From the NCBI GenBank assembly GCA_035547035.1, contig DASZVL010000013.1, forward strand, positions 66,503 to 130,502: a stretch of DNA of 64,000 nt, written 5' to 3'. A program made the translations under genes and the position numbers. The notes under the pieces were generated by a model. That model did no database searches, had not been told where the DNA came from, and worked only from the letters and a program-made list of their open reading frames with translations. The DNA is from Mycobacteriales bacterium (GTDB lineage Bacteria > Actinomycetota > Actinomycetes > JAFAQI01). Positions 1 through 64,000 of the stretch are shown here, piece by piece (position 1 is the stretch's first letter; each line of letters begins with the position of its first letter).

Positions 1-56
1 GGCACTCACCGGCCGCCGCCGCGCGACCGGCATCGGCACGGCCGTCGTGACGGCGG

Positions 57-575: not shown

Positions 576-674
576 CGAGCCCTCCGGTATGAGTCAGTTT
601 GGTTTTCCAACTGATTAGTCGACACCGTAGAGCACTAGGTTGGATTTGCCAACCCACTATGCGACACTGATTAT

Positions 675-1106: not shown

Positions 1107-1140
1107 CGGACTGTGATGCCTCAGGTTTTAAAGTGCACCA

Positions 1141-2562: not shown

Positions 2563-2570
2563 CAGTCGTA

Positions 2571-15724: not shown

Positions 15725-15882
15725 GTCCTCCGCCCCACCCACCACCCAAATCTCGTGCCGGCTCGCCGACCCCGTCGATGGCCATCCTCGCAGCCGCCTC
15801 GGACGCCCCCGCAGGGGAACATCCACGGAGGTGGAATGGTTGTTGAGGGTGCAACGACCAGGAACCCACTGAGGAGAGCGCA

Positions 15883-16128
15883 ATGTCGGGCCGGCTGACG
15901 ATGTACAGCACCAGCTGGTGCGGGGTTTGCGTGCGCCTGAAGCGTGGGCTGGAACGCGAGGGCGTCGAGTTCGACGAGGTCAACATCGAGGAGGACCCCG
16001 AGGCCGAGAAGTTCGTCCTCGAGACGAACAACGGCATGGCCCTGGTGCCGACGGTCGTGCTGCCGAACGGCGAGGTGCTGAGCAATCCACAGCTCCCCAC
16101 CCTCCTCGAGGCTCTCAGAGCCGCGTGA
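15883..16128 (+). CDS. glutaredoxin-like protein (NrdH/mycoredoxin type)
   Basis: 81 aa with CGVC active site (YSTSWCGVCVRLK), thioredoxin fold; divergent from uvrD2 as in mycobacteria. Confidence 0.8.
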   Translation: MSGRLTMYSTSWCGVCVRLKRGLEREGVEFDEVNIEEDPEAEKFVLETNNGMALVPTVVLPNGEVLSNPQLPTLLEALRAA

Positions 16129-29693: not shown

Positions 29694-29703
29694 GACGGCA
29701 CAG

Positions 29704-30867
29704 TCATCTGTGTACGGCGAAGACGCTGACCTCGCGCAGCGAGGTGAAGAAGCCGCCGGTGTCGGTCTCGACGCGGACCGCGTCCACGCGCGTACCCGGC
29801 AGTGACGCGACCAGTACGTCGTCGGCGCTGCCGAACGGCTCCGTCGCGACGCGGGTGAACCGCCCGCCACCAGGACTGATCGACACTGTGCAGCTCAGAC
29901 ATCCGCGTACCACGAGCAAGGCGGCCGGTACCGGACGACGCAGGGTCACAGTGACATCGCGGTGGTCGTGCTGGGCAGACCCTGCGCACGGCCCGGCTGC
30001 GCATCGCGGGTCGTCAACCGGTTGCCAGTCCGAGTCGAGGACTCCGTCCGTCAGCCCGCACTTCGGCTGCCGGATCTGCTGACCGCGGCTGTCGGTGACG
30101 CTGCACCCAGCGCCTCGACTCGCGGGCACGTCCGTCCCTCGCAGCTCGAGACTGCTGCTGAACAACGCGTCCCGTCCGTGCAGCCGGCCGGACTGCGCCG
30201 TCGTCAGCAACAGGTGTTCGTCCTCGACGACGCGGGCGTCGTACCCGTTGGTGACAGTGAGGGCGTGGCCGTCAGCGACCGGTGGTGTGCCGGTCTCGGT
30301 CTCGAGTGAGGCTTCGAAACGCGACGGGCGATAACGGAGTGGAAGCGGCGGTGGCACGACGAAGCGACGGTTTCCGAGTGCCCGAACATGAGGCGCGCCC
30401 GCGGCCAACCGGATCCGCGCTTGCGTGGACCCGCGCCGCCAGGGCAGGACGACACTCGTCGCCACACGCGCCGGTCCACGAGCCGCGGCGGCGGTGATGT
30501 TGTAGTCGTCGTGCTCCGCGTTGCGTCCCGGCAGCGACAGCGCGAACGACCCATCTCGAGCCGTGAAGCCGCTGTCATGCGGAGCCGAGCAGCCGAGGAG
30601 GCAGTAGAAGCCGACTGTCGAGAAGGCTCCGATCGCGCGAACTGCCTGCTCTCCGCTCGACAGCGCGACTGAGACCACCACAGTCGCACCGGCGACCGGA
30701 TGGCCAGCCGTGTCGGTCACGAACCCGGTCACGGCACGGCCCTGCACCGGTTGCGCGTGCGGCGGCACCGACGGCGGTGTGGTTGCCGGAATCTGGCCCG
30801 CGGTTCGCGGCTGGGCGCATCCCGCCGCGAGCAGAAGCGCGGCAATCGAGGCGAGTCGCCACCGCAT
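29704..30867 (-). CDS. putative lipoprotein, function unknown
   Basis: Signal peptide with lipobox MRWRLASIAALLLAAGC; 387 aa Ser/Thr/Gly-rich, several Cys pairs. Confidence 0.5.
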   Translation of the reverse strand: MRWRLASIAALLLAAGCAQPRTAGQIPATTPPSVPPHAQPVQGRAVTGFVTDTAGHPVAGATVVVSVALSSGEQAVRAIGAFSTVGFYCLLGCSAPHDSGFTARDGSFALSLPGRNAEHDDYNITAAAARGPARVATSVVLPWRRGSTQARIRLAAGAPHVRALGNRRFVVPPPLPLRYRPSRFEASLETETGTPPVADGHALTVTNGYDARVVEDEHLLLTTAQSGRLHGRDALFSSSLELRGTDVPASRGAGCSVTDSRGQQIRQPKCGLTDGVLDSDWQPVDDPRCAAGPCAGSAQHDHRDVTVTLRRPVPAALLVVRGCLSCTVSISPGGGRFTRVATEPFGSADDVLVASLPGTRVDAVRVETDTGGFFTSLREVSVFAVHR

Positions 30868-32111: not shown

Positions 32112-33284
32112 TCAGTAGAGAGGTTCGTCTCCGACTACCTGGGTCTGCCAGGCGGTCACGCCGCCCTGCACGTGCTTCGCGTCACCGAAACCGGCGTTCT
32201 TCAGAAGCGCAAGCGCCTCCGCCGACCGCACACCGGACTTGCAATACAAGACCACCGGCTTGTTCTGCGGCAGCTCGGACAGCCGCGACGGCAGCTCACC
32301 CTTCGGGATGAGCACCGCGTCAGGAATGCGCACGATCTCCCACTCGGCAGGCTCGCGGACGTCGACGAGGTAAAGGTCGTCGCCGCGCTGCACCATCGCG
32401 TTGAGCTCTCCGGCGGTGATCGTCGAACCCGCAGCAGCCGCTGAGGCCTCCTCGGACACGACGCCGCAGAACGCCTCGTAGTCGATGAGCTCGGTGATCG
32501 TCGGGTTCTTGCCGCAGATCGCGCACTCCGGGTCCTTGCGGACCTTGACCGAGCGGTAGGTCATCTCGAGCGCGTCGTAGATCATCAGCCGGCCGACGAT
32601 CGGCTCACCGATGCCGGTGATGACCTTGATCGCCTCGTTGACCTGGATCGAGCCGATGGAGGCGCAGAGCACACCGAGCACCCCGCCCTCGGCGCACGAC
32701 GGCACCATGCCGGGCGGCGGCGGCTCCGGGTACAGGCAGCGGTAGCAGGGTCCGTGCTCCGACCAGAAGACCGACGCCTGGCCGTCGAACCGGTAGATCG
32801 AGCCCCACACGTAGGGCTTGTTGAGCAGCACGCACGCGTCGTTGACGAGGTAGCGGGTCGCGAAGTTGTCGGTGCCGTCGACGATCAGGTCGTACCGGCT
32901 GAAGATCTCCATGACATTGGAGGAGTCGAGCCGCTCCAGGTGCAGATCGACCTGCACGAGCGGGTTGATCTCAGCGACCGACGCCTTCGCACTCTCCGCC
33001 TTGGATCGACCGACGTCACTCTGGCCGTGGATGACCTGGCGCTGCAGGTTCGACTCGTCGACGACGTCGAAGTCGATGATGCCGAGCGTCCCGACACCGG
33101 CGGCGGCGAGGTACATGAGAGCGGGCGAGCCGAGGCCGCCGGCGCCGACGCAGAGGACCTTGGCGTTCTTCAGCCGCTTCTGCCCATCCATCGCGACGTC
33201 CGGGATGATCAAGTGCCGCGAATAGCGCCGGATCTCGTTCGGCGTCAGCTCAGCAGCAGGCGCAACGAGCGGGGGAAGCGGCAC
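32112..33284 (-). CDS. moeZ: adenylyltransferase/sulfurtransferase MoeZ (MoeB/ThiF E1-like plus rhodanese)
   Basis: YSRHLIIPDVAMDGQKRLKNAKVLCVGAGGLGSPALMYLAAAGVG ThiF motif, CxxC pairs, C-terminal rhodanese with CKSG active-site loop. Confidence 0.9.
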   Translation of the reverse strand: MPLPPLVAPAAELTPNEIRRYSRHLIIPDVAMDGQKRLKNAKVLCVGAGGLGSPALMYLAAAGVGTLGIIDFDVVDESNLQRQVIHGQSDVGRSKAESAKASVAEINPLVQVDLHLERLDSSNVMEIFSRYDLIVDGTDNFATRYLVNDACVLLNKPYVWGSIYRFDGQASVFWSEHGPCYRCLYPEPPPPGMVPSCAEGGVLGVLCASIGSIQVNEAIKVITGIGEPIVGRLMIYDALEMTYRSVKVRKDPECAICGKNPTITELIDYEAFCGVVSEEASAAAAGSTITAGELNAMVQRGDDLYLVDVREPAEWEIVRIPDAVLIPKGELPSRLSELPQNKPVVLYCKSGVRSAEALALLKNAGFGDAKHVQGGVTAWQTQVVGDEPLY

Positions 33285-33419: not shown

Positions 33420-35000
33420 CTACCAGGAGAACCAGCGACGGCGCCGCTCGGGCACGACGGTCGCGGGCGCGTCAGGTGAGGCCGGCATCGGCGGGGTTCC
33501 CCATACGGCTTCCTGGTCGAACGGCACTTCCACGCCGGACACCGGCGCCGGCCCTGGCGCGCCGCCCTCGTCAGCCGGGTGGCCGCCGTACGGCGGCTCG
33601 GGCACCCATCGCGCGGCGCGTTGCTCGGCATCGTCGACCGCGGGCCGCTCGATGGACGTCGTGTCGGCGTCATCGTCATCGCCGGCGTCATCGTCGTCGT
33701 CAAGACCGGCCCGGCTGAAGTCGATCTGCGCGACGTCGGCGGCGCCCTCGTCGTCCCCGTCGTCGCCGTACCTGTCGTCGACCTCGTCAGCGCGGGCATC
33801 GTCGCCGTGCCGGCTGTCGCCCTCGTCGTGGTGCGCGGCGGCGATGGGGGCCGGCGGCTCGGGCTGCGGCGGAGCAGGGGCATCGACGAGTGCGACTGCG
33901 CCCGCCCGGCCAAGCAGCGTCTGCGCTAGCGCGAAGACGGCGTCATCCACGTGGGTCGTGATCCGCTGCTCGAGGGCGTTGATCGCGGCGTCGAGGTCGC
34001 CGCTCGGCGCCGGCGACGCCTCGCCGCCGGCAGGCGGGGCGGCCGCCAGCGCGGCGAGCTGGTCGGACAGGCCGGAGAGCTGCTCGCTGATCGGCGACAG
34101 GTCGACCGGCTCGCTCCCGCCGTCGCTGCTCGCGCGGGCCGCGACCACGCCGGCCACGTCCGAGCGCAGCGTCTGCAGCTCGTCGGACAGCTCCGCGAGC
34201 TGCCTGGTCACCGGGGCCAGATCGACCGGGGCACCGGCCGGAGCCGAGGCGGAGCTTTCGCGGGCGGCGACGACGCCGGCCACGTCCGACCGCAGCGACT
34301 GGATCTCACCGGCGAGGGCGCTGAGCTTGGGCTCGAGGCCGGCAAGAGCGCCCTCGTCGATCGTGGCCGGCTGGGCGAGCGCGGCCTGAGTGCCCGCCGC
34401 AAGCGACTCGAGCTTGCCGTGAAGCGACTGCAGGGAGGCGGCGTGGTCGTTGTGCGCCTGCGCGAGGCGCTGCGCGAGCGGGCCCAGCATTCCCTCGATG
34501 GCGGACAGCCGCTCGCTGACCTGGGCGTCCGTCGGGCGCGCCAGGGCCTGTTCGATCCCGCCCAGGCGCTGGCCGAGCGAGCCCTCGATGCCGCCGAGGC
34601 GCTGTTGGAGGCCGTTGAGACTCTCCTGCACGGCCGAGACCTGCTGTCCGTACGACGGCAGCGCCTGCATACCCGTGGTGAGCACGCCGATCGTCTCCGC
34701 CTGGGACCGGACGTGGGCGTCGATCGCACCGAGTGCGCCGCGGGTGTCGGCAAGCTCCTCGCCTCGCTGCGCGACCATGCGGGCGACCCCGTCGAGCCGC
34801 TCGGCCAGGAACCGGACGGCCTCCCGCAGCTCGGCCGTGACCGAGTTGATCGCGTCAGGGTTCTGCGCGGGCTGCTCAGCGCGGAGGGCGGCGACCTCCT
34901 GCCCCAGCCGGATGACCTGGTTGCGAATGTCGACCAAGGCCGACATCGGGTCCGGCGCGGGCACCGGAGCACCCGTGGCGGGGTCAGTGGTCACCGACAT
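33420..35000 (-). CDS. acidic coiled-coil protein with internal tandem repeats (unknown function)
   Basis: Long heptad-like Leu/Ala/Gln-rich region; direct repeat L[AS]ELSDELQTLRSDVAGVVAAR[EA]SS twice; poly-Asp tract DDDDDAGDDDDAD; Pro-rich tail. Start ATG 35000 (or GTG 34994 with better SD spacing); ORF extends to 35231. Confidence 0.6.
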   Translation of the reverse strand: MSVTTDPATGAPVPAPDPMSALVDIRNQVIRLGQEVAALRAEQPAQNPDAINSVTAELREAVRFLAERLDGVARMVAQRGEELADTRGALGAIDAHVRSQAETIGVLTTGMQALPSYGQQVSAVQESLNGLQQRLGGIEGSLGQRLGGIEQALARPTDAQVSERLSAIEGMLGPLAQRLAQAHNDHAASLQSLHGKLESLAAGTQAALAQPATIDEGALAGLEPKLSALAGEIQSLRSDVAGVVAARESSASAPAGAPVDLAPVTRQLAELSDELQTLRSDVAGVVAARASSDGGSEPVDLSPISEQLSGLSDQLAALAAAPPAGGEASPAPSGDLDAAINALEQRITTHVDDAVFALAQTLLGRAGAVALVDAPAPPQPEPPAPIAAAHHDEGDSRHGDDARADEVDDRYGDDGDDEGAADVAQIDFSRAGLDDDDDAGDDDDADTTSIERPAVDDAEQRAARWVPEPPYGGHPADEGGAPGPAPVSGVEVPFDQEAVWGTPPMPASPDAPATVVPERRRRWFSW

Positions 35001-35125
35001 CTCCTCGATCGCGGCTGCTTGGCAAGAAGTATCTCTGTTCTCGCCGACTAACGCAGCCTTCTCCTCCGCAGCATCTGTAACTGGCGCTACGCCCCGATAT
35101 CGCGGATCGTAGTCGGGCGGGCGCG

Positions 35126-35142
35126 CCAGGTATACGACCTGG
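35126..35142. promoter_or_regulatory. candidate TetR operator palindrome in the divergent intergenic region
   Basis: CCAGGTATACGACCTGG (6-bp perfect arms) 44 bp upstream of the TetR start, between divergent genes. Confidence 0.3.
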
Positions 35143-35185
35143 CTGGCCCCGACCCGGGTGGCGAGTCGATACGCTTCGGACCACC

Positions 35186-35821
35186 GTGACCCAAAGCCCT
35201 GGCGCCACCGAGCGCAGCCGCAGGCTGCCACGCTCGGCCCGGCGGGAACAGCTGCTCGGCGCTGCGCAGGAGGTTTTCGTTGCGCACGGCTACCACGCGG
35301 CCGCCATGGACGACATCGCCGAGCGTGCCGGAGTCAGCAAGCCGGTCCTCTATCAGCACTTTCCCAGCAAGCTCGAGCTCTACCTTGCGCTGCTCGAGCT
35401 CCACGCCGACGCGCTGGAGCGCCAGGTTCGCCACGCGTTGGAGAGCACCAGCGACAACCACGACCGGGTGTTCCGCTGCGTCCAGGTCTACTTCGACTTC
35501 GTCGACGAGCCGGGCGGTGCGTTCCGGCTGGTCTTCGAGTCCGACCTGCGCAACGAGCCGATGGTCCGCGAGCGCGTCGACCGCGCCCTGCAACGTTCGG
35601 TCGAGGCGATCGCCGACACGATCGCGAGGGACACCGGTCTGGACCGGGAGCAGGCTGAGCTGCTGTCGTGCGGACTGGCGGGCGCAGCGGAGATCAGCGC
35701 CCGCTGGTGGCTCGACGCGGGCGGTCGGGTCGACAAGCAACGGGCGATCGAGCTGATCCAGGCCCTCGCCTGGCGAGGGATCAGCGGCTACCCCCTCGCC
35801 GCCTTCCCGCCGCTCTCCTAG
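35186..35821 (+). CDS. TetR/AcrR-family transcriptional regulator
   Basis: HTH AAMDDIAERAGVSKPVLYQHFPSKLELYLALLE; 211 aa; GTG start. Confidence 0.85.
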   Translation: MTQSPGATERSRRLPRSARREQLLGAAQEVFVAHGYHAAAMDDIAERAGVSKPVLYQHFPSKLELYLALLELHADALERQVRHALESTSDNHDRVFRCVQVYFDFVDEPGGAFRLVFESDLRNEPMVRERVDRALQRSVEAIADTIARDTGLDREQAELLSCGLAGAAEISARWWLDAGGRVDKQRAIELIQALAWRGISGYPLAAFPPLS

Positions 35822-52420: not shown

Positions 52421-53935
52421 CTAGGCGGACTCGAGCCAGCGCAGGAAGGTCCGCACGCCGAAGCCTGTGGCGCCTTTCGTCACCTCGTCCTCGTCGCCGT
52501 CGGCTCGGGCCGGTCCAGCGACGTCGAAGTGCGCCCACGGCAGGCGGCCGGCGAACTCGCGGAGGAACAACGCTGCGGAGATCGACCCTCCGCTGTAGTG
52601 CTTGGCGGGATCGCCGATGTTGCGCAGGTCCGCGATCTCGGAGTCGAGGCCGTCGCGGTAGTCCTCGACGAGCGGCATCTGCCAGACCCGCTCACCGGCA
52701 TCAGCAGCAGCGGCGAGGAGCTCGTCGCGCAGGCCGCCCGCCGTCGCGTAGAAGGCGGCGTGCCGCTTGCCCAAGCCCAGGTACGCCGCTCCGGTCAGCG
52801 TCGCAATGTCCACCACGGCGTCGGGATTCAGCTCCGCTGCGGCGTAGGCGAGAGCGTCGGCAAGGACGAGCCGGCCCTCGGCATCGGTGTTGAGCACCTC
52901 ACTGGTCCGGCCGCCGTAGTGACGCAACACGTCGCCCGGCCGCATCGACGCCGCACCCGGCATGTTCTCGGCCATGGGCACCAGCGCGGTGACCCTCACC
53001 CCGATCTCGAGCGCGGCGAGTGCTGTCATGGTCGCGATCACCGCGGCGCCGCCTGCCATGTCGGTCTTCATGCTCGGCATGCCGTCGGGCGGCTTGATCG
53101 ACAGGCCGCCGCTGTCGAAGGTGATGCCCTTGCCGATCAGGACGACATGGCGGGTCGCGCCCTCCGGCGACCAGCTCGCTTCGAGCAGCCGCGGCGGCCG
53201 GGCCGAGCCCTGGCCCACGCCGACGATGCCGCCGAACCCCTCGGCTTGCAGCTCTGCCTCGTCGCGGACCCGGACCGTCACGCCGGCTGCCCGGCAGAGC
53301 TCTCCGGCGCGCATCGCGAGCCAGTCAGGAGACTTCTCCAGCGACGGCGTGTTGGCCAGGTCACGCGCGAGGTGTACGGCGTCGACGACAGCCGGTGCCT
53401 GGCGAAGCGCGGTGCGCACCGCGCGAGGATCTTCGACAAGGAGCTTCACGCGACGCAGCACGGGCGCCTCGGCCGCCTTGGCGACCGAGAACCGGTACGC
53501 CGCCAGCCCGATGCCCTCAGCCACGGCGCGCACGCCGGCGGCATCACGGCCGTCGGCGAGCGTCGTCGCGAGGGAGCGCGAAGCCTTCGCCCGCCGTACG
53601 ACGGCGGCAGCCGCCTTGCGCAACGCCCCCGTCGAGCCCTCGCCCGTTCCGGCGAGCAGGACGACGTCGACGCCGTCGCGGTGGACCGGGATGGCGACGA
53701 TCTCCCCGGGCTTGCCTGTCGCCTTCTCGGCCTTGAGGAACGCCGCGGCGTCGAGCTTGAGCGCTTTCAGCGCATCCGCGCCGCTTCCCAGCTCGGGGAG
53801 CCCGCGCTGCCGCGGGCTCGTGGGGATGGCGAGGACCGCGCCCGCGCCGAGGAGCGGGCCGCGGGCAGCGGTGATCGAAGGCGCGCCTGCCACCGGAGAG
53901 CGGCTAGCCGACTGCGGTCTTGAGGGCGTCTCCAA
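52421..53935 (-). CDS. pepA: leucyl aminopeptidase (M17 family)
   Basis: NTDAEGRL motif and M17 metal-ligand pattern, 504 aa; true start may lie downstream of 53935. Confidence 0.9.
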   Translation of the reverse strand: METPSRPQSASRSPVAGAPSITAARGPLLGAGAVLAIPTSPRQRGLPELGSGADALKALKLDAAAFLKAEKATGKPGEIVAIPVHRDGVDVVLLAGTGEGSTGALRKAAAAVVRRAKASRSLATTLADGRDAAGVRAVAEGIGLAAYRFSVAKAAEAPVLRRVKLLVEDPRAVRTALRQAPAVVDAVHLARDLANTPSLEKSPDWLAMRAGELCRAAGVTVRVRDEAELQAEGFGGIVGVGQGSARPPRLLEASWSPEGATRHVVLIGKGITFDSGGLSIKPPDGMPSMKTDMAGGAAVIATMTALAALEIGVRVTALVPMAENMPGAASMRPGDVLRHYGGRTSEVLNTDAEGRLVLADALAYAAAELNPDAVVDIATLTGAAYLGLGKRHAAFYATAGGLRDELLAAAADAGERVWQMPLVEDYRDGLDSEIADLRNIGDPAKHYSGGSISAALFLREFAGRLPWAHFDVAGPARADGDEDEVTKGATGFGVRTFLRWLESA

Positions 53936-54071
53936 GTGCGGTTGCCTCGTCGGGAGTCATCGCGACGACCAGACGGCCACCACCCTCGAGGGGCACGCGC
54001 ATGAGGATGTCACGTCCCTCCTTGGTCACCTCGAGCGGACCATCGCCCGTCCGCGGCTTCATGGCAGCCAT
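53904..54071 (-). CDS. DUF3117-family small protein
   Basis: MAAMKPRTGDGPLEVTKEGRDILMRVPLEGGGRLVVAMTPDEATALGDAL, conserved actinobacterial small protein; 3' end overlaps the annotated pepA start. Confidence 0.6.
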   Translation of the reverse strand: MAAMKPRTGDGPLEVTKEGRDILMRVPLEGGGRLVVAMTPDEATALGDALKTAVG

Positions 54072-54279
54072 GCGCGTGCTCCTTCGTTCGTCAGCTCGTC
54101 TGCGGGCCCGCAAGGGCCGGAGACCTCCATTATCGCGGACATTTGGGCCGCCTAGCGTCCTGAGTCAGAAGTTCGCCACCCAGGACACAAGCCGGCCGGC
54201 GTCACCGTCGGGCCCTGAACTGCGTCGGCCGGCACCACGCAGATGCGCGATACCGGCCGATGCAGAACTCAGTCGAGTG

Positions 54280-57200
54280 CTACTTGACGTGCACCTTCAC
54301 CACGTTGCTGTAGCCGCTACGAACCCCGGCACGGCCCTTGACCTTGGCCTGGAACCTCAGGTGCAGGCCCTTCGCGGCCTTCAGCGTGCCCTTGACCTTG
54401 CCCTTCGGGCCGGTGACGCCGGTCCCGATCTTGTGGCGGGCTCCGCTCTTGCTGAGCTGGTAGAAGACCACCTTCGCGGCAACGAGCTTCGGGTGGCTCG
54501 TGACGGTCAGCGTGAGCTTCTCCCGGTGGTGGGCCGCCCGCTTCTGGCTGACCGTAAGCGCCGGCTTCTCCTTCGTGCTGCTGCCGCCGCAGTTCGACGT
54601 GCAGCCGCTGCCGCCTGAGCCGAACGTCACTACCGCCGTCGCCGGGTTGTGGCTGCCGACGCCGCTCGGGGCGTTGGTGCTCGCGTCGAGCACCGTCACC
54701 GTGTCACTGCCGCTGCTTCCGGTGTCGAGGTAGTTGAACGACGCGGTTCCGGCCGAGCCGGTCGTCGCCGTGCCCGACTGACTGTTGCGGCCGCTGACGG
54801 CCCACTGGAGCGTCTGGCCGGACACGCCCACACCGAACTGGTCGACCACCCGACCGGTGAGGCTGACCTCGCCGCCTGGCGCGACCTTCTGGGACGCCGG
54901 AGTCACGCCGACCGCCGCGGGGTGAGGCGCCTGGAACGTCGCCACTGCCGTATCCGGTCCCAGGCCGCCCTTCGTCGGGTCGCCCACGCTCGCCTGGACG
55001 GTGACCTTGTTGCCGGCAGCCGGGCTGGGCACGCTCACGACGAACAGCGCGTTGCCCTTGGCGTTGGTGTTGACCTGCGTCGCGGTCGTGGTGGACCCGC
55101 TCGGCGAGCCGCTCATCACGAACGTCACGGGAATGTTCGCCAGCGCAGCGTTGCTCGCGTCAGCGACATGCGCAGCGAAGATGATCGACTGCACGCCGCC
55201 ACTGCCTGTCGTGACGGTGCAGGCCGGGACGATCTGATTGGCGTCACTGGTCAGCTCGTCCGGGCAGCCGAACGTCAGAGTGCTGCCGGCCGGCGGAAGT
55301 GCCTGAACCGTGACCGTGGTGGTGGTCTGCGGGTCATTCGTGGCCGGAGCAGTCTCGTTGGCCGCCAGCGGGGAGAAGAACGTCACGTGGTCCACACCGA
55401 CGTTCTGGTTGTTGATCAATGAGCACTTCGCCTGACCGAACTGGTCGGCGGCCTGGCAGGCGACCGCCTTCGACGTGGCGTCCGGGCCCCCCGACGCGAC
55501 GACGTAGGAGACTGCCGCACCCGGCAGCGGTGTGCCGTTTGCGTCCTGCACGAGGACCGTGAACGTCGCCGTGCCGCCTTGCGCGATCGTCGGGTTTGCC
55601 GGCGTCACCGTCACCGTGTGCGCGGGACCCGGGGTCACGACGGTGAGCGTCTGGTTCGAGCTCACCTTGTTGTTGGCGCTGGTCGCCAGCGTCGTCTGGG
55701 CGAAGACGTTGACGGTTCCGGCGGTCTTTCCGCTGATCCCGACGATGATCTGGCCGGGATGCGCCGGGTCCTGAGCCGAGGTGCTGTTGATCGTGAGGGT
55801 GTCGGTCCAGGTCGGGTTGGTCAGCGGCGGCAGGCCCCCGCTCGACTTGACGCTGTTCGTCGAAGACTCGGTGGAGCCGCCGGGAACAGCGCACGTCGAC
55901 AGCGATGCCGCCGGCGCGCTGGCTGCCGTGCCGAGGCCCTGCGTGGCGACGATCGCCACCGGGTACTGCACGCCGGGTGCAACGGTGACCGTGTACGCCT
56001 GGCAACCGCCAGTGGCGATCTGCGCCTGACCTTGACCGGGCGAGAGGTCCGGGGCGAGCGTCACAGACGACGGGTTCGCAAAGGTGATGGTCACGGTCGC
56101 CTTCTGCGATGCAGGAAGCGTCGTCGGGTCCGTGACAGTCCCGCTCGGGTCGTTGTAGATCAGGACTGTGTCGGTTCCGGCGGTCCCGCTGTTGGCGACG
56201 TCGCAGACCCAGCTCGTGGTGCCGCCGCTGCTCGTGCAGGCGTGCGAGACATTGGCGCCGTCGAGATCCGATCCGGTGCTGGCCGTGACCTTGTAGCGCA
56301 CGTTGGGCGTCTGGGCGCTGCCGCTCGTGACGGTCACGTTGATCCGGCCGATGCCGCTGCCGGAGTTGGCGGAGTCCTTGGTCGGGAACGTCGTCGCCGT
56401 CGGCGTAGCGGTCACCGAGTCGCCGAACGTCACGTTCAACGTCGTCATCGGCTCGGGAAGCGGGTTCGTCGGGTTGTTGCCGTCGTAGACGCCGTTGTTG
56501 TTGGCGTCGTCGAAGATCGTGAGGTGGTCGGTGCCGCCCGTCCCGTTGTTCTTCAAGGTGCACGTGAACGTCGAGCCGGTCTGCGGGCAGATCACGGAGG
56601 TCGTCGTGTGGTCCGGGTCGCCGGCCGGCGTGATGACGTAGTCGATGTTCGCGGTCTGACCGGACGGGACACCCGCGGCCGTGACCGTGATGGTTGCGGT
56701 GCTGCCGGCCGAGTGGTTCGGGCCACCCGCGTCCTGTGCCGTCAGGACCTCGAAGTTGGCGGTCGCGGTCGCCGACGGCTCGGTGCTGCTGGGCGCCTTG
56801 TTCTGGTCGAGGTCGTCGTAGACCTCGACCGTCGCCGAGTCAGCGCGGCCGTTGTTGACGACGCTGCACGTCCAGGACGTCATCGGGTCGGGGTTCTTGC
56901 CCGCGTCGTTGTCGGTGCAGGTGCCGGGGCTGCTGAACTGGCCGCCGACGATCACCTCACGCAGGTGCGGCTGCCAGGTCGCGAGCCTCCCTGTGAGCTC
57001 GACGTCGAAGGCCGCCGAGCCTGCCGGCGAGGTGTTGCTGCGCGGGAGAAGCGGCGTGGAGGTCATCCCCTCGAAGCTGATCGTGATGGTCGTCTTGGCC
57101 TCGTCGGTGTCCGCCTGGTTTGGCGTCCCGTTCGCCGAGTCGTCGTCGAAGAGCTGGACGGTGTCCGTGCCGGCGGTGCCGCCGTTGGTAAGCGGGCAGG

Positions 57201-57786
57201 CCCAGTTGGCGGGCTGGGTCTGCGACTGGGTGCACTGGATCAGCGTGCCGTTGTCCGGTCCGGCAGTGACCAGGCCCTTGAGGGCCGGGGTGGTCGAGGC
57301 GCCCGTGAAGGTCACGTTGATGGTGGCCTTCTCGCCCGCGCCGTAGAGGTACGTCGGCGTTCCGGCAGGCGTGACGTTCTGGTCCGCCGTCGCCACCATC
57401 GTCTCGAAGCTGATCGCGGTAGGTGCCGAGGACACGTTCTGGGTGGGGTCGGTGACCACGACCTGGTCGGTGCCCGCGCCGCCGGTGTTGGTGAGCGAGC
57501 AGGTCGCGCCGCTCGCGCTGATGGTCGTGCAGCTGGCGCTCGGCGCGGCGTGGTCCGGGCCGCTCACCACGCTCAGGACGAGCGCGTCACCAGCCACCGG
57601 GTTCGTCACCGAGACGGTGATGACCGCGGTCTGGCCCACCGGGTACCGCGCCTGCTGACCGACTGCGGAGATGCTCTCCGAGCCGGCCGCCGAGGCGGCG
57701 GTGGCAAGGGGGACTGTCGACCCCAACGTGGCAGCCGCGATCGCCGCGACCGAACTCAGCCACCGCACCGCCCGCTTCGTGTGCAT
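54280..57786 (-). CDS. giant secreted repeat protein 1: Cys-pair/DxDxNG modules, Big_1-type Ig-like domain array, basic C-terminal domain
   Basis: Signal peptide MHTKRAVRWLSSVAAIAAATLGSTVPLATAASA; six or more modules C..C.[LV].N.G.AGTD.[VL].[IVL][FY]DD..NG; Big_1 signatures (VQDANGTPLPGAAVSY, VVDQFGVGVSGQTLQW); antisense frame is Arg-rich junk. Confidence 0.75.
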   Translation of the reverse strand: MHTKRAVRWLSSVAAIAAATLGSTVPLATAASAAGSESISAVGQQARYPVGQTAVITVSVTNPVAGDALVLSVVSGPDHAAPSASCTTISASGATCSLTNTGGAGTDQVVVTDPTQNVSSAPTAISFETMVATADQNVTPAGTPTYLYGAGEKATINVTFTGASTTPALKGLVTAGPDNGTLIQCTQSQTQPANWACPLTNGGTAGTDTVQLFDDDSANGTPNQADTDEAKTTITISFEGMTSTPLLPRSNTSPAGSAAFDVELTGRLATWQPHLREVIVGGQFSSPGTCTDNDAGKNPDPMTSWTCSVVNNGRADSATVEVYDDLDQNKAPSSTEPSATATANFEVLTAQDAGGPNHSAGSTATITVTAAGVPSGQTANIDYVITPAGDPDHTTTSVICPQTGSTFTCTLKNNGTGGTDHLTIFDDANNNGVYDGNNPTNPLPEPMTTLNVTFGDSVTATPTATTFPTKDSANSGSGIGRINVTVTSGSAQTPNVRYKVTASTGSDLDGANVSHACTSSGGTTSWVCDVANSGTAGTDTVLIYNDPSGTVTDPTTLPASQKATVTITFANPSSVTLAPDLSPGQGQAQIATGGCQAYTVTVAPGVQYPVAIVATQGLGTAASAPAASLSTCAVPGGSTESSTNSVKSSGGLPPLTNPTWTDTLTINSTSAQDPAHPGQIIVGISGKTAGTVNVFAQTTLATSANNKVSSNQTLTVVTPGPAHTVTVTPANPTIAQGGTATFTVLVQDANGTPLPGAAVSYVVASGGPDATSKAVACQAADQFGQAKCSLINNQNVGVDHVTFFSPLAANETAPATNDPQTTTTVTVQALPPAGSTLTFGCPDELTSDANQIVPACTVTTGSGGVQSIIFAAHVADASNAALANIPVTFVMSGSPSGSTTTATQVNTNAKGNALFVVSVPSPAAGNKVTVQASVGDPTKGGLGPDTAVATFQAPHPAAVGVTPASQKVAPGGEVSLTGRVVDQFGVGVSGQTLQWAVSGRNSQSGTATTGSAGTASFNYLDTGSSGSDTVTVLDASTNAPSGVGSHNPATAVVTFGSGGSGCTSNCGGSSTKEKPALTVSQKRAAHHREKLTLTVTSHPKLVAAKVVFYQLSKSGARHKIGTGVTGPKGKVKGTLKAAKGLHLRFQAKVKGRAGVRSGYSNVVKVHVK

Positions 57787-57977
57787 CGTGTTGCGCTCCT
57801 CCCGGAAAGCCTTCATCTGATCGGCTCTTCGTCGTAACCCCAGCGCACCGGTGCCCTGAAGCCCAGCAATGCGAATCCACCCAAATGGGCGGATATCCCA
57901 ACCGGGACATCATACGGGCGCGCGTCGCGCCACGCTGGGAAGGTTGGGCGGTTAGTTGTCACTGTCTCCGGCCGCCG

Positions 57978-60900
57978 TCAGGCCTTGACTCGGATCGACT
58001 TCGTCCGCGACTTCCCCGACCGCACGCCGGACTTGCCCGACACCTTCGCGCGGAACTTGAGCTTCTTGCCGACCTTCGCGTGGACGAACAGGTGCGCCCG
58101 TCCGGCCGAGCCCGTCCGGCTCACCCCGATCTTGTGGAAGTGCCCGAGCCGCTCGACGTAGTACGTCACCTTCGCGTGGGCCAGAGCCGGGTGGCTCGAG
58201 ACGTGGATCGTGACGACGCCCGCGTGAGAGGTCAGGCGGATGCCCGGGTGCTCCTTGGCCCCGCCCGCGACCGAGACGTTCAACGTGCCGCTGGGCTCGC
58301 CGCTGCCGGCGCTGCCGTTGTTGTTGACGTCGTCGTAGGCGAACACGTGGTCGGTCCCGCCAACGACCGGGGTGTAGGCGAAGAACGCCACGCCCTTCGG
58401 CGTCGTCGTACCGGACCCGGAGGCGGAGTTCGCTCCGGTGATCCGGAACCGGACGAGCTGACCGACCGCGGGGGTGCCGTCGGAGTTCGTCACGGTTGCC
58501 GCGATCAGCTCCTGGTCGCCGACCTTGCGCGGGCCGGCGGCCTGGACCACGACGCTGGTCGCCACGACCGGGGCGCTCACGGTGTACGTCGCGGTCGCGG
58601 TGCACGCGCCCGCGGTGGCAGCGGGCGGCGTGCCCTGGTTGGCAAGCTGGCCGCACTGGCTTCCCGCGCCCCCGGCGGAGATCGTGGCGACGACCGAGCC
58701 GGGCCCGCTGTCCGTCGCCGCGGTCGTGACCGTCACGCTCGCCGTACCGTCCGCGGCGGTCGTCAGCGTCGCCGACGACGAGCCCGCGATGTTGCCGGGC
58801 CCGCTCTGGGTGAACTGCAGTCCGACGTTCGCCACCGGGTTGCCGAAGGCATCCGTGACGGTGGCGGTGAACTTGCCCGAGGTCCCGCGGGTGATGGTCG
58901 TCGATGCCGGCGCGATCTTGATCGTGCGCGCCTTGTCGGACGTCGGCGTCTGGTAGGTCACCGTGCTCGAGGCGGTCGCCGAGTCGGCACTGGCGGTGAC
59001 GGTGTGGGCGCCCGACTTCGTCGACGTCACGTCCGCGAACGCAAAGCCTGCGGCATCCGCGGCGACGGTGACACTCGTCGTGCTCGTCGGTGTGAGGGCG
59101 CCCTGCTTGGCGACCTGGCCGTTCGACATGGTGAAGGTCACCGGCTTGCCGGCGAGCACCTCGCCGGTCGAGTTCTTCACGAGCGCACACACGGTGGTCG
59201 TGGTCCCGAGCGCGACGTTGGTCGCCGCCGTGTGGCCCGTCGCGGTGCAGGTGGCGTCCGACGTGCCACTCCCGCTCGTGTCGATCGTGATCACCGACGC
59301 GGCGGTCGAGCCGTTGACGTACTGCACGGTCGCGGAGCCGTTGAACGGGTGCGTGGTGTCGATGACGCTGATCGTGTCCGACGTGGACGCGGCGTTCACG
59401 CCGGTGTCGGTGTAGCTGATCGTCGCAGTGCCGGCGGGACCGGTCGTGACGGTTCCGCCCTTGCCGTTGTTGCGCCCCACCACGGAGTAGTTCAGGGCCT
59501 CCGACCCGGACACCCCGGCGCCGAACTGGTCGGTGACCTGTGCGGTCACCGTGACCACGCCGCCCTTCGTGACGGTCTGAAGCTGAGGTGTCACAGCCAG
59601 CGCGGTCGCCACTGGTGTCTGCCAGCTTGCGCTGGAGGTTCCGGCGGATGTCGCACCAACCTTCGCCTGAATGATCGCGCCGTCGCCGGCGGCCGGGTTC
59701 GGATCGTTGATCGTGAAGGTCGCGATGCCGTTCACGTCGGTCGTGGCGCTCCCGGACGGCAGGTTCGCCGCGCTGATCGCCTGACCACCGACCACCGCTG
59801 CGGTCGCGGTGAAGTCGACGATGGCACCGGAGACCGGCGTCCCGTTGTTCTTGAGGATCTCGGCGAACGTCACCGACTTCTGCGTGGTCGGCACGGTGCA
59901 GTTCTGGACGCCGGTGCCCTGGTTCGCACCGGCCAGCTGCTGGACGCAAGTGAGGGCATCGCTGGTGAAGGTGGGTTGCGCGTTGAAGACAGCGGTTGCC
60001 GTGGTCTGCGGCTCGTTCGAGTCCGGGCCCGTCGTGTGGTTGCCCGGCGCGTTGTTGTCCACCCAGAAAGTGATCGCATCGGTTCCGGGGCTGCCACCGT
60101 TCGGCACCGAGCATGTGGTGGTGCCGTCGGCGTGCGTGGTGCCACACGCCGCAGGGGTCAGGCTGTCCGGCCCGCTCGTGGTCTCACGGTTGACTTGGAC
60201 GCCCTCGATCGGGTTGTTGGTCGAGTCGGTGACGCCGACGGTGTAGGACGCGACGGTGCTGGTGTACTGCGTCCGGCTCGCCGGTACCGCGAGCAGCTTC
60301 GCCGCTCCCGCGACGCCGCCGACGCTCCAGTTCATCGGCTGGGAGCCGCTGATGTTGCCCGCGGCGGTAGCCGTCACGCTCCCGGGACCGGCGTTCCCGG
60401 CCGCAACGCCGATCTTGACCGTGCCGTCGCTGCCGGTCTGGACCGTCTTCGTCTGGCTGACCGTAAACGTGCCGTCGCCGTTGTCGGTAGCCCCGGTCCG
60501 CTGGTCGGCACCCGTCGAGCAGTCGGCGTTGAAGAACGTCACCTCAGGAGCGCTCGGCGTGCCGGTGACGGTCTGGTTCATGGTCACCGTGATCGGATCG
60601 CCGGCCGACGCCCGCCCCCCGGCGTCGGTCGCGGTGATCGTGTAGACGATGCAGGTTCCCGTGGTGGCGGAGTTGCTCGGGGCGGTGATGGTCACCCCGG
60701 CCGCCGCGCCCGAGAACGTCACGAGCGTGGAGGGCGACACCACGTCGGCGGGCGCGGGCGTCGCGTCGTCCACGCCGTCGTTGTTGTTGTCGGCCAACGC
60801 CTCGACCGTGTCCTGGCCGGCGCCGTTGGCGTTGCGCAACGAGCAGGTGGCCGTGCCATCAAGCCTGGTCAGGCACGGCGCTCCCGCGGGGAACGCGGTG

Positions 60901-61514
60901 CCGTCGGTGCCGCTGGGATTCGGGCCGCCGAGGTTCGTGAGCCGGATCAGCGGCGCATCCTGCCCGGCGACGACGGGCGAGTAGTGCACGTTGAGGGTCG
61001 CGGTGGAGCCGGCCGGCTGGTTGGTGTTCTGGCTGTTCGCGTCGATGGTGACCGACGTGTCGGTCGTCTCGGCGCCGGTGAGCGCAACCGTGGCGTCCGC
61101 GTGCTGCGCGCCGTTCGTGATGCGCAGCACGTCAGGGCCTGCCCCGGCGTAGACGTTGGTGAAGGTGCAGCTGCCGCTGAAGACGTTGGCCACCGGGGCC
61201 GTCTCCGAACAGCTCAGGGTCGGGTTGGGCCCGGCGCCGTCGGGGCCGCTGGCGAACGCGAACGTCGAGGCACCCGTCTCCGTGCCGTCCGTGGTGACGG
61301 TGTAGTTGACGGTCGCCGTGCCGCCGTGAGCCATCGTCGTGGTGGTGCCGGCGGGGTTGATCGTCACTGCCGTCGTGGCGGCCGCCGCCGTTCCGAGCGA
61401 CAGCGGAGAGGCCAGTACGGCGGTCGTCGCGCCGATCACCGTGGCGGCGGAGGCCCACCGCTTCAGCGCACGACGAAGACTCCCCGTACCGGTCATGTGC
61501 ATCCCTTCCGACAC
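57978..61514 (-). CDS. giant secreted repeat protein 2 (paralog): Cys-pair modules plus Big_1 array plus basic C-terminal domain
   Basis: Signal peptide; Big_1 signatures VTDQFGAGVSGSEALNY, VKNSTGEVLAGKPVTF, VTDAFGNPVANVGLQF, VTNSDGTPAVGQLVRF; C-terminal domain alignable to proteins 1 and 3. Confidence 0.75.
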   Translation of the reverse strand: MSEGMHMTGTGSLRRALKRWASAATVIGATTAVLASPLSLGTAAAATTAVTINPAGTTTTMAHGGTATVNYTVTTDGTETGASTFAFASGPDGAGPNPTLSCSETAPVANVFSGSCTFTNVYAGAGPDVLRITNGAQHADATVALTGAETTDTSVTIDANSQNTNQPAGSTATLNVHYSPVVAGQDAPLIRLTNLGGPNPSGTDGTAFPAGAPCLTRLDGTATCSLRNANGAGQDTVEALADNNNDGVDDATPAPADVVSPSTLVTFSGAAAGVTITAPSNSATTGTCIVYTITATDAGGRASAGDPITVTMNQTVTGTPSAPEVTFFNADCSTGADQRTGATDNGDGTFTVSQTKTVQTGSDGTVKIGVAAGNAGPGSVTATAAGNISGSQPMNWSVGGVAGAAKLLAVPASRTQYTSTVASYTVGVTDSTNNPIEGVQVNRETTSGPDSLTPAACGTTHADGTTTCSVPNGGSPGTDAITFWVDNNAPGNHTTGPDSNEPQTTATAVFNAQPTFTSDALTCVQQLAGANQGTGVQNCTVPTTQKSVTFAEILKNNGTPVSGAIVDFTATAAVVGGQAISAANLPSGSATTDVNGIATFTINDPNPAAGDGAIIQAKVGATSAGTSSASWQTPVATALAVTPQLQTVTKGGVVTVTAQVTDQFGAGVSGSEALNYSVVGRNNGKGGTVTTGPAGTATISYTDTGVNAASTSDTISVIDTTHPFNGSATVQYVNGSTAASVITIDTSGSGTSDATCTATGHTAATNVALGTTTTVCALVKNSTGEVLAGKPVTFTMSNGQVAKQGALTPTSTTSVTVAADAAGFAFADVTSTKSGAHTVTASADSATASSTVTYQTPTSDKARTIKIAPASTTITRGTSGKFTATVTDAFGNPVANVGLQFTQSGPGNIAGSSSATLTTAADGTASVTVTTAATDSGPGSVVATISAGGAGSQCGQLANQGTPPAATAGACTATATYTVSAPVVATSVVVQAAGPRKVGDQELIAATVTNSDGTPAVGQLVRFRITGANSASGSGTTTPKGVAFFAYTPVVGGTDHVFAYDDVNNNGSAGSGEPSGTLNVSVAGGAKEHPGIRLTSHAGVVTIHVSSHPALAHAKVTYYVERLGHFHKIGVSRTGSAGRAHLFVHAKVGKKLKFRAKVSGKSGVRSGKSRTKSIRVKA

Positions 61515-61699
61515 CCCCGCGGGCGCCGTGGCAGGCGTTGACGCACGCGTGCGCTACCTCTATCGACGCCGAGAACCGGTGTTGGTCGCGGCCAGTTGTC
61601 GACTTCGTACCACATCGCAGGCAGGCGATCGGGGAGGCTGAACGCAGTTCGGGATGACCAGTGCCGCAAACCGGGAGTTTTGTCCTGGTCTGCGAAAAC

Positions 61700-61735
61700 G
61701 CTGAAGGCCGGCCCCTGATGGGACCGGCCTTCAGC
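61700..61735 (-). terminator. intrinsic terminator downstream of giant gene 3
   Basis: GCTGAAGGCCGG-(12 nt)-CCGGCCTTCAGC, 12-bp perfect stem; on the minus strand followed by CGTTTTCG. Confidence 0.55.
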
Positions 61736-61751
61736 GTTACTTGCGGGTGAG

Positions 61752-63995
61752 CTACCGCTTGACGTGGATCGACCGCGCCGGCGACGTGCCCGACGTCGTG
61801 ATCGACGTGGCGCTCACCTTCACCCGGAACTTGCGGTGCGAGCCGCGCTTCTCCGCGAAGGAGTGCGAGGCCTTGCCGCTGAGCGAGCCCGTCCGGTTGT
61901 GGTGGATCAGCACCCACGACCCGTGGCGCTTCACGTAGTAGCGCACGTTGGCCTGGAAGGCCTTCGGGTGCGTCGTGACGTGAACCCGCACGTGGCCAGG
62001 CGTCGAGCTGAGCGAGATCGACGGGTGCTCGATGCCGTGCACATGCCCGGTCGCGAACGCCTGCGGCTCGTCAGCCTGACGGATCTGGTCGTCGTTGGTG
62101 TCGACGAACGCCGCGAGGTGAACCGTGCCGTGGTGGGTGACCAGGATCGACACGTGGGTGTTGCCCAGCGGACCGGTCGTCGCGCTTGCAGCGGCCGTGT
62201 CCGCACCCTTCATGTAGAACCGGACGACCTGGTGGGCCGCCGGCGTGCCGTCGGAGTTCGTCGCGTTGGCCTCGATCCGCATGTGCGTACCGGACCTGAC
62301 GCTCTTCTCAGGCGTGATCGTCAGACCGCTCGGCGTCACCGTGGTGCCCACGGTGTACGTCGAGGTCGCGGTGCAGGTGCTCGCCGGCGTCCCGGTCGGG
62401 GCGCTCGAGCACTGCGTGCCCGTCGTGGCGATGGTCGCCGTGACGGAACCCGAGCCCTTGTCCGTCGCCGCCGTACCGAGCGTCACACTCGCGGTGCCGT
62501 CGGATGCGGTGGTGACCGAAGCGGACGACGCGCCGCCGATCGAGCCCGGGCCGCTCTGCGTGAAGCTCACGCTCACGCCGGGGACCGGGTTGCCGAACTT
62601 GTCGGTAACCGTGGCGGTGAACTTCTGCTGACCGGCCGGCGCCACCGTCGCGGTGGCCGGAGCCAACGCGATGGCGTAGGCCTGGCTTGCGGCCGGTCCC
62701 GCGTAGGTCACGGTGCCCGTGCCGCTCACGCCATCAGCAGTCGCCGTGACGGTCTGCGCGCCGGCCTTCGTCGAGGTGACGTCAGCGAACGCGACACCTG
62801 CGGCATCGGTCGTCGCCTGGTAGGTCGTGCCGCTGCTGCTGGTCAGCCCGCCATGAGCCGCCACCTGGCCGTTGCTGACCGTGAAGGTCACGGCCTTGCC
62901 CGCCAGCACCTCACCTGTCGAGTTCTTCACCACGGCGCAGACCTCGGTCGTGTGCTGCAGCGCGACGTTGGTCGCCGCAGTGTTGCCACTCAGGCCACAC
63001 GTCGCGTCGCTGACGCCGAGACCGCTCGTGTCAACCGTGACGGTGCCGGCCGATGTAGAGCCGGTCACGTAGTCGACCGTCGCGGTGCCGTTGAAGTGGT
63101 CAGTGTTGTCCGTCACCTGGATGGTGTCGGTCTTCTGAGTCGGCACGGTGCCTGCGTCAGTGTAGGTGATGGTGCCGTCGGCCGCCGCCGTACCCGTCTT
63201 GGCGTTGTTGCGCCCGGTGACGAAGTACGTGATGTTCGGCGAACCTGCCACCGCGGTCCCGAACTGGTCGGTGACCGTTGCCTTGACCGTCACGGTGCCG
63301 CCCACCTGGACCGTCTGCAGCGCAGGCGTGACCGTGAGGCCGGTGGCCGTCGGCGATGCCCAGTGTGCAGTGGCGGACCCGATGTTGGTCGCACCGACCG
63401 CCGCGGACACCGTGACGTTGTCACCGTTGGCCGGCGTCGGGTCATTGACGACGTACGTCGCGGTCCCGTCAGCACCGGTCGTCTTGGTGGCCGACGCCGG
63501 CAGGTTGGACCCGGTCAGGGTCGTGCCACCGAGCTTCGCCGAGGTCGCCGTGAAAGTGACCGGAGCGCCCGAGATCGGGTTGCCGTTGGCGTCCTTGACC
63601 GTCGCCGTGAACGTCACCGACGTGGTGCTCGTCGGGACGGTGCAGTCGGTCTGCGCGGTGCCCTTGTTGGCACCTGACAGCTGCTGCGTGCAGGTCACCG
63701 AGCTCTTCGCCGCAGACACCGCCGGCGCGGCGTTGAACGTCGCAGTTGCGGTGCCCTTCGGCTCACAAGTGTCGGCACCGCTGGTGTGGCTGCAGCCCGA
63801 GGCCGTGTTGTCCACCCAGAAGACGAGCGAGTCGGTGCCCGCCGTGCCGCCGTTGTGGACCGTGCAGGTGGCCTGACCGGAGGAGTTCGTCGTCCCGCAC
63901 GAGGTCACGGGAACGTTGTCCGGGTTGGTGGTGCCGGTCGTCGCCTCGTTGATGGTGACGCCCTGCACCGGGCTGGTGCCGTTGGTGGCGGTCAC
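61752..63995 (-). CDS. giant secreted repeat protein 3 (paralog, 5' end beyond window)
   Basis: Big_1 signatures VKDANGNPISGAPVTF, VTDQFGTAVAGSPNITY, VKNSTGEVLAGKAVTF, VTDKFGNPVPGVSVSF; long blocks about 80% identical to protein 2; same basic C-terminal domain. Confidence 0.75.
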   Translation of the reverse strand: MTATNGTSPVQGVTINEATTGTTNPDNVPVTSCGTTNSSGQATCTVHNGGTAGTDSLVFWVDNTASGCSHTSGADTCEPKGTATATFNAAPAVSAAKSSVTCTQQLSGANKGTAQTDCTVPTSTTSVTFTATVKDANGNPISGAPVTFTATSAKLGGTTLTGSNLPASATKTTGADGTATYVVNDPTPANGDNVTVSAAVGATNIGSATAHWASPTATGLTVTPALQTVQVGGTVTVKATVTDQFGTAVAGSPNITYFVTGRNNAKTGTAAADGTITYTDAGTVPTQKTDTIQVTDNTDHFNGTATVDYVTGSTSAGTVTVDTSGLGVSDATCGLSGNTAATNVALQHTTEVCAVVKNSTGEVLAGKAVTFTVSNGQVAAHGGLTSSSGTTYQATTDAAGVAFADVTSTKAGAQTVTATADGVSGTGTVTYAGPAASQAYAIALAPATATVAPAGQQKFTATVTDKFGNPVPGVSVSFTQSGPGSIGGASSASVTTASDGTASVTLGTAATDKGSGSVTATIATTGTQCSSAPTGTPASTCTATSTYTVGTTVTPSGLTITPEKSVRSGTHMRIEANATNSDGTPAAHQVVRFYMKGADTAAASATTGPLGNTHVSILVTHHGTVHLAAFVDTNDDQIRQADEPQAFATGHVHGIEHPSISLSSTPGHVRVHVTTHPKAFQANVRYYVKRHGSWVLIHHNRTGSLSGKASHSFAEKRGSHRKFRVKVSATSITTSGTSPARSIHVKR

Positions 63996-64000
63996 GGTGA

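Follow-up and report, generated by a model that had tools for sequence, protein, structure and literature searches.

How high-GC Gram-positive soil bacteria retain large secreted proteins at their surface is little understood beyond sortase/LPXTG anchoring and lipoproteins. Among the closest described systems are the S-layer proteins of Lactobacillus, whose positive charge resides mainly in a conserved wall-binding region of ~125 residues at the C-terminus; its electrostatic binding to teichoic acid was either proposed or shown (PMC3666127). The catalogued non-covalent wall-binding domains include the GW modules (SH3-8) of Listeria InlB and Ami as well as LysM, SLH, CWB1, CWB2 and WxL; the WxL proteins are encoded in clusters, and SLAP may be related to SH3 (PMC5817068). 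The subject of the present work is a basic domain, referred to below as the tail, at the C-terminus of three secreted proteins with immunoglobulin (Ig)-like repeats of the Big_1 type. Their genes are arranged in tandem, all on the minus strand, at the right end of a 64,000-nucleotide stretch with a G+C content of ~69% (contig DASZVL010000013.1 of assembly GCA_035547035.1, Mycobacteriales bacterium, positions 66,503 to 130,502). This whole stretch is called the window, and the genes, proteins and tails are numbered 1 to 3 as in Table 1. The tail is a distinct, unannotated, portable and obligately C-terminal domain family in which the charge is conserved and the sequence less so; its function is possibly the electrostatic retention of secreted proteins on the cell envelope.

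The tail domain and its family

The three tails are homologous. Pairwise BLASTP comparison of them gives E-values of 2e-16 (39% identity), 3e-18 (46% identity) and 1e-07 (29% identity), and since these values are composition-adjusted, the similarity is far beyond chance and does not come from a shared basic composition alone. Tail 1 is longer (97 residues) because five extra residues are inserted between strands A and B. The net charge of tails 1, 2 and 3 is +21, +18 and +14, respectively, versus −9 to +2 in all other 95-residue segments of the three proteins. The bodies preceding the tails are acidic, with isoelectric points (pI) of 4.46, 4.49 and 5.12 in proteins 1, 2 and 3 and a net charge of −15 to −37. 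The tail profile scores 95–104 bits on the three tails and less than 10 bits on any body repeat, and a six-frame scan of the 64-kb window with the family hidden Markov model (HMM) finds no copies beyond these three. The G+C content at third codon positions is 0.89–0.92 in the bodies (0.90 in gene 1) and 0.94–0.98 in the tails, where every Lys codon is AAG and every His codon is CAC. A third-position G+C of ~0.9 identifies the three genes as real coding sequence; the fully host-like codon usage of the tails means that their basic composition is encoded on purpose and is not an artefact of the reading frame.

The family was collected by an exhaustive hmmsearch with a profile of the three tails against 1.84 billion cluster representatives, which returned 101 representatives at E≤1e-3, including 35 at E≤1e-10. 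The full domain ends no more than 5 residues from the C-terminus in 82 of the 102 sequences examined; the rest comprise fragments as well as long repetitive proteins in which weak partial matches add up. A word-index protein search is almost blind to the tail: it yields one chimeric fragment with the three-tail profile and one 87-residue protein with a profile of 78 tails.

Mean column identity in the alignment of these 78 tails is 38%. Their median pI is 11.25 (minimum 10.0), their median net charge +14 and their median number of His residues 7, versus a median pI of 4.5 and a median net charge of −20 for the attached bodies. Lys, Arg and His make up 11.2, 7.6 and 7.7% of the tail residues and 1.8, 1.5 and 1.2% of the body residues, respectively; Asp is depleted in the tails and Cys is absent. 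At least half of the residues are Lys, Arg or His in 19 of the 92 columns. Along the strands these columns and those of the hydrophobic core alternate, the former being densest on the last two long strands (F and G; positions 65–71 and 86–91). Near-invariant polar positions are few: Glu2, His22-Pro23, His41 and Thr48.

The passengers placed before the tail are diverse and comprise Big_1 arrays, an NHL propeller with He_PIG, an ALK/LTK-type glycine-rich domain, Calx-beta repeats, and 15 CarboxypepD_reg domains with SdrD_B. The smallest complete arrangement, found at locus L003 (9500–10264, plus strand), is a 254-residue protein that consists of a signal peptide, an S/T/P-rich linker of ~110 residues and the tail, with no passenger at all. 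Its signal peptide is Arg-rich (RRRRSARVVIG) and possibly of the Tat type, its gene adjoins that of a sedolisin-like peptidase, and the public gene call (87 residues) begins inside the tail.

Two further metagenome sequences were considered as records of tail mobility onto cytoplasmic proteins, namely P0001 (N-terminus of SecF; contig L005, 178–639) and P0009 (N-terminus of phosphoglycerate kinase); the housekeeping N-terminus is joined in frame to a type-1 tail in the former and to Ig repeats and a tail in the latter. Both were rejected as being most likely assembly chimeras on short metagenome contigs, although the recurrence of one tail subtype in the two cases is curious.

In the positional orthologues adjacent to pepA (window versus metagenome-assembled genomes, MAGs) the bodies are 30–33% identical, the tails 63–72% and PepA itself 75–78%. 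All 38 complete members of the family have signal peptides, and none of them contains a lipobox, an LPxT[GAS] motif in the last 150 residues or, beyond the signal peptide, a stretch resembling a transmembrane segment. Likewise, the translations of the window proteins show neither an LPXTG/sortase anchor signal nor such a stretch, and protein 1 has no lipobox.

These results agree with the initial annotation of the window, where it was noticed that the three giant proteins share a strongly basic C-terminal domain, the rest of each protein being neutral to acidic. The tails quoted there are the exact C-termini of the open reading frames (ORFs), and the coordinates hold within a few bases, the stop codon having been included; the length of ~95 residues is corrected to ~92, with 97 for tail 1. 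The suggestion of a portable module is borne out by the presence of the tail at the C-terminus of unrelated passengers and by the conservation of its basic charge across the family. Loss of the tail from orthologues, as would be expected of lineage-specific drift, is not observed, since orthologues and ~100 clusters of relatives carry it. Literature searches revealed no earlier description of such a domain, no public record of the exact sequence of protein 1 was found with either of two alternative starts, and no relatives of full-length protein 2 were found among 185,579 species genomes.

Fold of the tail and its relation to Ig-like domains

The tail is predicted by AlphaFold2 to form a seven-strand sandwich, with a mean confidence score (pLDDT) of 88.1 for tail 1 modelled from three sequences and of 93.3 for tail 2 modelled from the 78-sequence alignment. 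With seven strands in two sheets and ~90 residues the model has the features of the Ig-like/E-set fold. Comparison of the model with the PDB by Foldseek gives generic Ig-like sandwiches at template-modelling (TM) scores of 0.55–0.73, none of them at E<1e-3; they include antibody Ig V domains, FN3-type domains of cytokine receptors, PKD, CARDB and SoxYZ.

No Pfam match was obtained for the window tails even at E≤10. No assignment of the tails to PDB sequences was found either, and NCBIfam, searched with tail 1 only, gave none. A match of 46 residues to the PDB sequence 8qox_B (E 2.4e-05) was discarded as non-specific: it covers just the central V..Y....G....T..G.A motif, which is common in sandwich domains.

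Across the family, Big_1 (PF02369) matches 21 of the 78 tails weakly (best 30.5 bits, E 3.8e-07, below the gathering cut-off of 34.9), and Big_3_5 (PF16640) matches 9 of the 78 (best 24.1 bits, below the gathering cut-off of 35.5). Almost the entire domain is covered in register by these weak matches, tail positions 14–80 corresponding to Big_1 positions 21–86 and tail positions 8–92 to Big_3_5 positions 10–87. A body-repeat profile from which the tails were left out matches 13 of the 78 tails at 13–20 bits, and hhalign assigns a probability of 4%. On these profile comparisons we conclude that the tail is remotely related to Big_1 and Big_3_5, two bacterial Ig-like domains, and yet forms a distinct family for which no model exists.

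Both the tail and Big_1 or Big_3_5 are thus Ig-like sandwiches of ~90 residues and seven strands, and the bodies of the window proteins are themselves Big_1 arrays. Unlike Big_1, the tail is polycationic, rich in His, free of Cys and always terminal. The Big_1 repeats of these proteins are acidic or neutral, internal and often provided with Cys pairs. The small beta sandwich proposed in the initial annotation from the periodicity of the sequence is reproduced by the predicted models. Its proposed novelty stands in part: there is no Pfam or PDB assignment (nor an NCBIfam one for tail 1, the tail compared), but the fold is an ordinary Ig-like one, broadly like that of the body repeats.

Gene cluster, secretion signals and genomic surroundings

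The positions of the genes, tails, signal peptides and hairpins are listed in Table 1.

Table 1. Features of the tail-bearing gene cluster (positions in the window).
Feature	Position	Strand	Description
Gene 1	54280..57816	−	ORF with translation; 1178-residue secreted protein, Big_1-like Ig repeats and basic tail
Tail 1	54283..54573	−	Residues 1082–1178 (97 residues), net charge +21, pI 11.5, 6 His; family HMM 95.6 bits, profile positions 1–92
Signal peptide, protein 1	57688..57816	−	Predicted Sec, ~residues 1–43, ...PLATAASA|AGS; cleavage site inferred by eye
Gene 2	57978..61514	−	1178-residue secreted Big_1-repeat protein with basic tail
Tail 2	57981..58256	−	Residues 1087–1178 (92 residues), net charge +18, pI 11.8, 9 His; family HMM 103.6 bits
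Signal peptide, protein 2	61377..61514	−	Predicted, Sec-type, ...KRWASAATVIGATTAVLASPLSLGTAAA|A; cleavage site inferred
Gene 3	61752..64000	−	C-terminal part (at least 748 residues) of third Big_1-repeat protein with basic tail
Tail 3	61755..62030	−	92–93 residues, net charge +14, pI 11.9, 10–11 His; family HMM 97.8 bits
Hairpin after gene 3	61697..61738	−	Perfect, GC-rich, just downstream of the stop codon; terminator-like, read from sequence
Hairpin after gene 1	54227..54258	−	GC-rich, downstream of the stop codon; terminator-like, read from sequence

The full-length proteins 1 and 2 contain 8 body repeats each in addition to the tail, as detected with an iterated repeat profile. Pfam recognizes Big_1 above the curated cut-off in protein 2 (E 7.7e-15, 5 stretches) and in protein 3 (E 1.1e-23, together with a weak match to Invasin_D3); in protein 1 the match is below threshold (32.6 bits versus a cut-off of 34.9, 3 stretches). 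Either GTG at 61514 or ATG at 61502 may be the start codon of gene 2, and the N-terminus of protein 3 lies beyond the end of the window (ORF 61752–63998). The hairpins that follow genes 3 and 1 suggest separate transcription units; a scan for consensus terminators left the one after gene 3 uncalled because it is followed by no long T run. Only over the three giant genes (window 54000–64000) does the plus strand show a strongly negative AT skew (−0.17 to −0.215); elsewhere the skew is close to zero. This probably reflects the Thr/Ala/Ser/Gly-rich composition of these genes, which are encoded on the minus strand.

The signal peptides of the family are unusually conserved inside subgroups, the intervening passengers up to the tail being variable. 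One subgroup has the pattern KRW.S.A.VIGS..AVLASPLA.GTA.AA; the N-terminal pattern of protein 2, KRW..VIGS..AVLASPLA.GTA.A, is common to the members P0002, P0008, P0015, P0017, P0030 and L001b/c. The pattern of another subgroup, MNRT.KALARLGTLAV.AGTALSAPFAIGTASA, occurs in P0047, P0048, P0049, P0069, P0074, P0093 and P0102.

Among the species genomes the tail motif VT[VI]HV[TS]SHP is found in just two soil MAGs (SMAG) labelled Mycobacteriales bacterium (L001 and L002), and it has no match in the JGI metagenome contigs. Cluster look-ups added a third Mycobacteriales bacterium MAG and one cultured organism, Actinoplanes couchii, with a distant family member that carries the annotation Calx-beta domain-containing (WP_203794632.1). 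The other members are all metagenomic and labelled as hypothetical, Ig-like or adhesin/invasin.

Tail-bearing genes also stand in tandem in L001 (four genes) and L002 (two genes). There the cluster is followed, as in the window, by pepA and a glgC-like gene, with identities of 75–78% and 88–93%, respectively. The same order of these genes means that the cluster is syntenic and located in a housekeeping region of the chromosome. No sortase-like enzyme, glycosyltransferase or receptor gene was found among the neighbours of the clusters. The first gene of the L001 cluster (3–2759, plus strand) encodes a body unrelated to those of window genes 1–3 and a tail of the Lys-rich subtype that is otherwise found in more distant members, so one cluster mixes tail subtypes. 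In the window gene 1 is the last of the cluster; a 55-residue ORF of the DUF3117 type (MAAMKPRTGDGPLEVTKEGRDILMRVPLEGGGRLVV...; 53904–54071, minus strand), shorter than the ORF-length cut-offs applied, separates it from pepA. This small gene recurs behind a tail fragment on metagenome contig L005 (806–973), which confirms the synteny.

Elsewhere in the window, positions 23203–29870 (minus strand) encode two adjacent proteins of ~1150 residues with UvrD-type helicase and PD-(D/E)XK nuclease domains, an AdnA/AdnB-like pair; nearby (13775–15883, minus strand) lies the gene of a UvrD helicase that has an HRDC domain. The AdnA/AdnB-like pair together with moeZ-like (32112–33284), htrA-like, tatB-like and mrp-like genes indicates a core actinobacterial chromosomal region and not an island. 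A 603-residue protein encoded at 33420–35231 (minus strand) has repeated coiled-coil-like segments (LRSDVAGVVAAR..., twice) and, towards its C-terminus, a very acidic region rich in Asp; its sole Pfam match, Baculo_PEP_C, is below threshold.

Possible role of the tail and comparison with known systems

We favour, with a probability of roughly 45%, the reading that the tail is a module for non-covalent electrostatic retention of secreted proteins on the envelope, in line with the binding to anionic wall polymers suggested in the initial annotation. It draws on the charge of the tail, its C-terminal position, the lack of any other anchor and analogy: exported proteins with no other attachment share one terminal polycationic domain on acidic stalks. 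The terminal region has the high pI that characterizes the electrostatic wall-binding class (10–12 versus ~4.5 in the body), and it is the more conserved part in the positional orthologues, with one pair reversed. The proteins that end in the tail are acidic, composed of several domains and exported by Sec in soil Actinomycetota (GTDB order Mycobacteriales, including Actinoplanes). In the tail an Ig-like sandwich related to Big_1 and Big_3_5 has been specialised as a polycationic C-terminal module, the surface positions of its strands, especially F and G, being taken by Lys, Arg and His. After export the cationic tail may stick to anionic envelope polymers, such as wall glycopolymers of the teichoic or teichuronic type, phosphorylated glycans or lipoglycans. 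The acidic Ig-repeat stalk, repelled by the wall, would then project outward as an adhesin or another displayed passenger.

Several observations weigh against electrostatic retention. No linked conserved partner or wall-polymer gene was found at the three loci; the flanks hold housekeeping genes (pepA, glgC-like, htrA, tatB and mrp), and the upstream side is absent from all three. In the comparison of gene 3 with its counterpart L001b the conservation is reversed, with 66% identity in the body and 49% in the tail, so the tail is not uniformly the slowest-evolving part. The protein of L003, made of signal peptide, linker and tail, suggests that the tail could itself be active and not just hold a passenger. 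The enrichment in His, near-invariant at two positions, is not explained by simple binding to polyanions and suggests a dependence on pH or metal. Besides, some Mycobacteriales have a mycomembrane, which would change the picture of the envelope. A wider form of the same idea must be called doubtful, namely that the tail is a general surface-display or retention tag of mycolate-free Mycobacteriales-type actinomycetes, usable for any Sec-exported passenger, targeted to an anionic wall glycopolymer and tunable by pH or metal through protonation of its ~7 His residues. In that case it would correspond, in actinobacteria, to the GW, SLAP or SLH anchors, though with another fold.

The same charge data would also suit a tail that is the business end of these proteins, i.e. 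a cationic adhesion module for external polyanions (clay or silicate, humic matter, pectin or acidic polysaccharides, extracellular DNA), the proteins being released as a matrix or adhesive. The hosts are soil organisms, the minimal protein of L003 fits intrinsic binding by the tail, and as there is no other anchor, release is conceivable. We nevertheless regard this as unlikely, because large Big_1 arrays with no second attachment point would be unlinked to the cell; furthermore, a strict position at the extreme C-terminus of diverse passengers is the mark of targeting and anchoring modules, whereas ligand-binding tips vary in position. The opposite charges of tail (+14 to +21) and body (−15 to −37) within one protein could alternatively serve docking or self-assembly: the tail would bind the acidic Ig bodies of neighbouring molecules or an acidic receptor, in a manner resembling cohesin–dockerin pairs or S-layers, and tandem paralogues would build fibres, a lattice or a complex. 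Tandem paralogue clusters are indeed present in the window and in L001 and L002, and Ig-like domains, to which the fold matches point, often mediate contacts between proteins. The tail is also found on passengers other than Big_1 and on a protein devoid of any passenger, however, and no conserved candidate receptor gene stands beside the clusters. Moreover, the charge is spread over many interchangeable Lys, Arg and His positions, as is typical of non-specific binding to polyanions and not of a defined interface, which makes docking quite unlikely.

There is little to recommend the idea of a C-terminal signal for secretion or sorting that is removed by dedicated machinery, functionally like the C-terminal domain (CTD) of the type IX secretion system (T9SS). 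A similar size, a beta-sandwich fold and the strict extreme C-terminal position on diverse cargo would agree with it, and conserved N-terminal signal peptides do accompany conserved tails. Yet the tails match no T9SS or other sorting-domain model in Pfam, nor does tail 1, the only one compared, in NCBIfam; the clusters have no linked gene that could be a candidate for processing or secretion, E-x-P at the start of the domain is the sole conserved motif that resembles a cleavage site, and known sorting domains are not extremely cationic. No T9SS is known from Actinomycetota, to which the hosts belong. The possibility that the tail has no special role and is simply the terminal Ig repeat of the array after drift towards a basic composition is hardly credible. 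Its weak in-register similarity to Big_1, Big_3_5 and the body repeats speaks in favour of such drift, which is largely refuted by the retention of charge and C-terminal position across ~80 divergent representatives and by the passengers other than Big_1. The gap between 95–104 bits for the tails with their own profile and less than 10 bits for the body repeats, as well as that between 63–72% identity of tails and 30–33% of bodies, is equally difficult to reconcile with drift.

Should electrostatic retention be the true role, the surface proteome of lineages that are mostly uncultured could be predicted from sequence, and actinomycete biotechnology would gain a compact display tag of 92 residues. 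Regardless of function, the alignment could seed a Pfam or NCBIfam model, by which ~100 clusters now labelled hypothetical, Ig-like or adhesin/invasin would obtain a defined C-terminal domain.

The CTD of the T9SS of Bacteroidota resembles the tail in being an Ig-like beta sandwich of 80–100 residues at the extreme C-terminus of diverse secreted cargo. It is not polycationic and is cleaved off. The two further differ in that the tail matches no CTD model, has no linked machinery and belongs to hosts of another phylum (Mycobacteriales and Actinoplanes). In its proposed role the tail follows the logic of the Lactobacillus S-layer anchor, where the charge likewise resides in a conserved terminal region joined to a more variable exposed region. 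The two are not related in sequence as judged by Pfam, they belong to Firmicutes and Actinomycetota, respectively, and the function was tested in the former and is proposed for the latter; the fold of SLAP also differs from the Ig-like fold of the tail. The domains GW, LysM, SLH, CWB1, CWB2 and WxL share with the proposed role of the tail the C-terminal, non-covalent retention of secreted proteins without LPXTG, and WxL also the clustering of genes; their folds are different and they are usually repeated, in contrast to the single copy of the tail. Neither LysM, SLH, GW/SH3-8, SH3b, CWB1, CWB2, WxL nor SPOR or SLAP appears among the Pfam matches of the full proteins or tails, and the catalogue of wall-binding domains contains nothing with the fold or sequence of the tail (PMC5817068). 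If the retention reading holds, the tail would add an anchor based on the Ig fold and on charge to the short list of non-covalent wall-binding modules.

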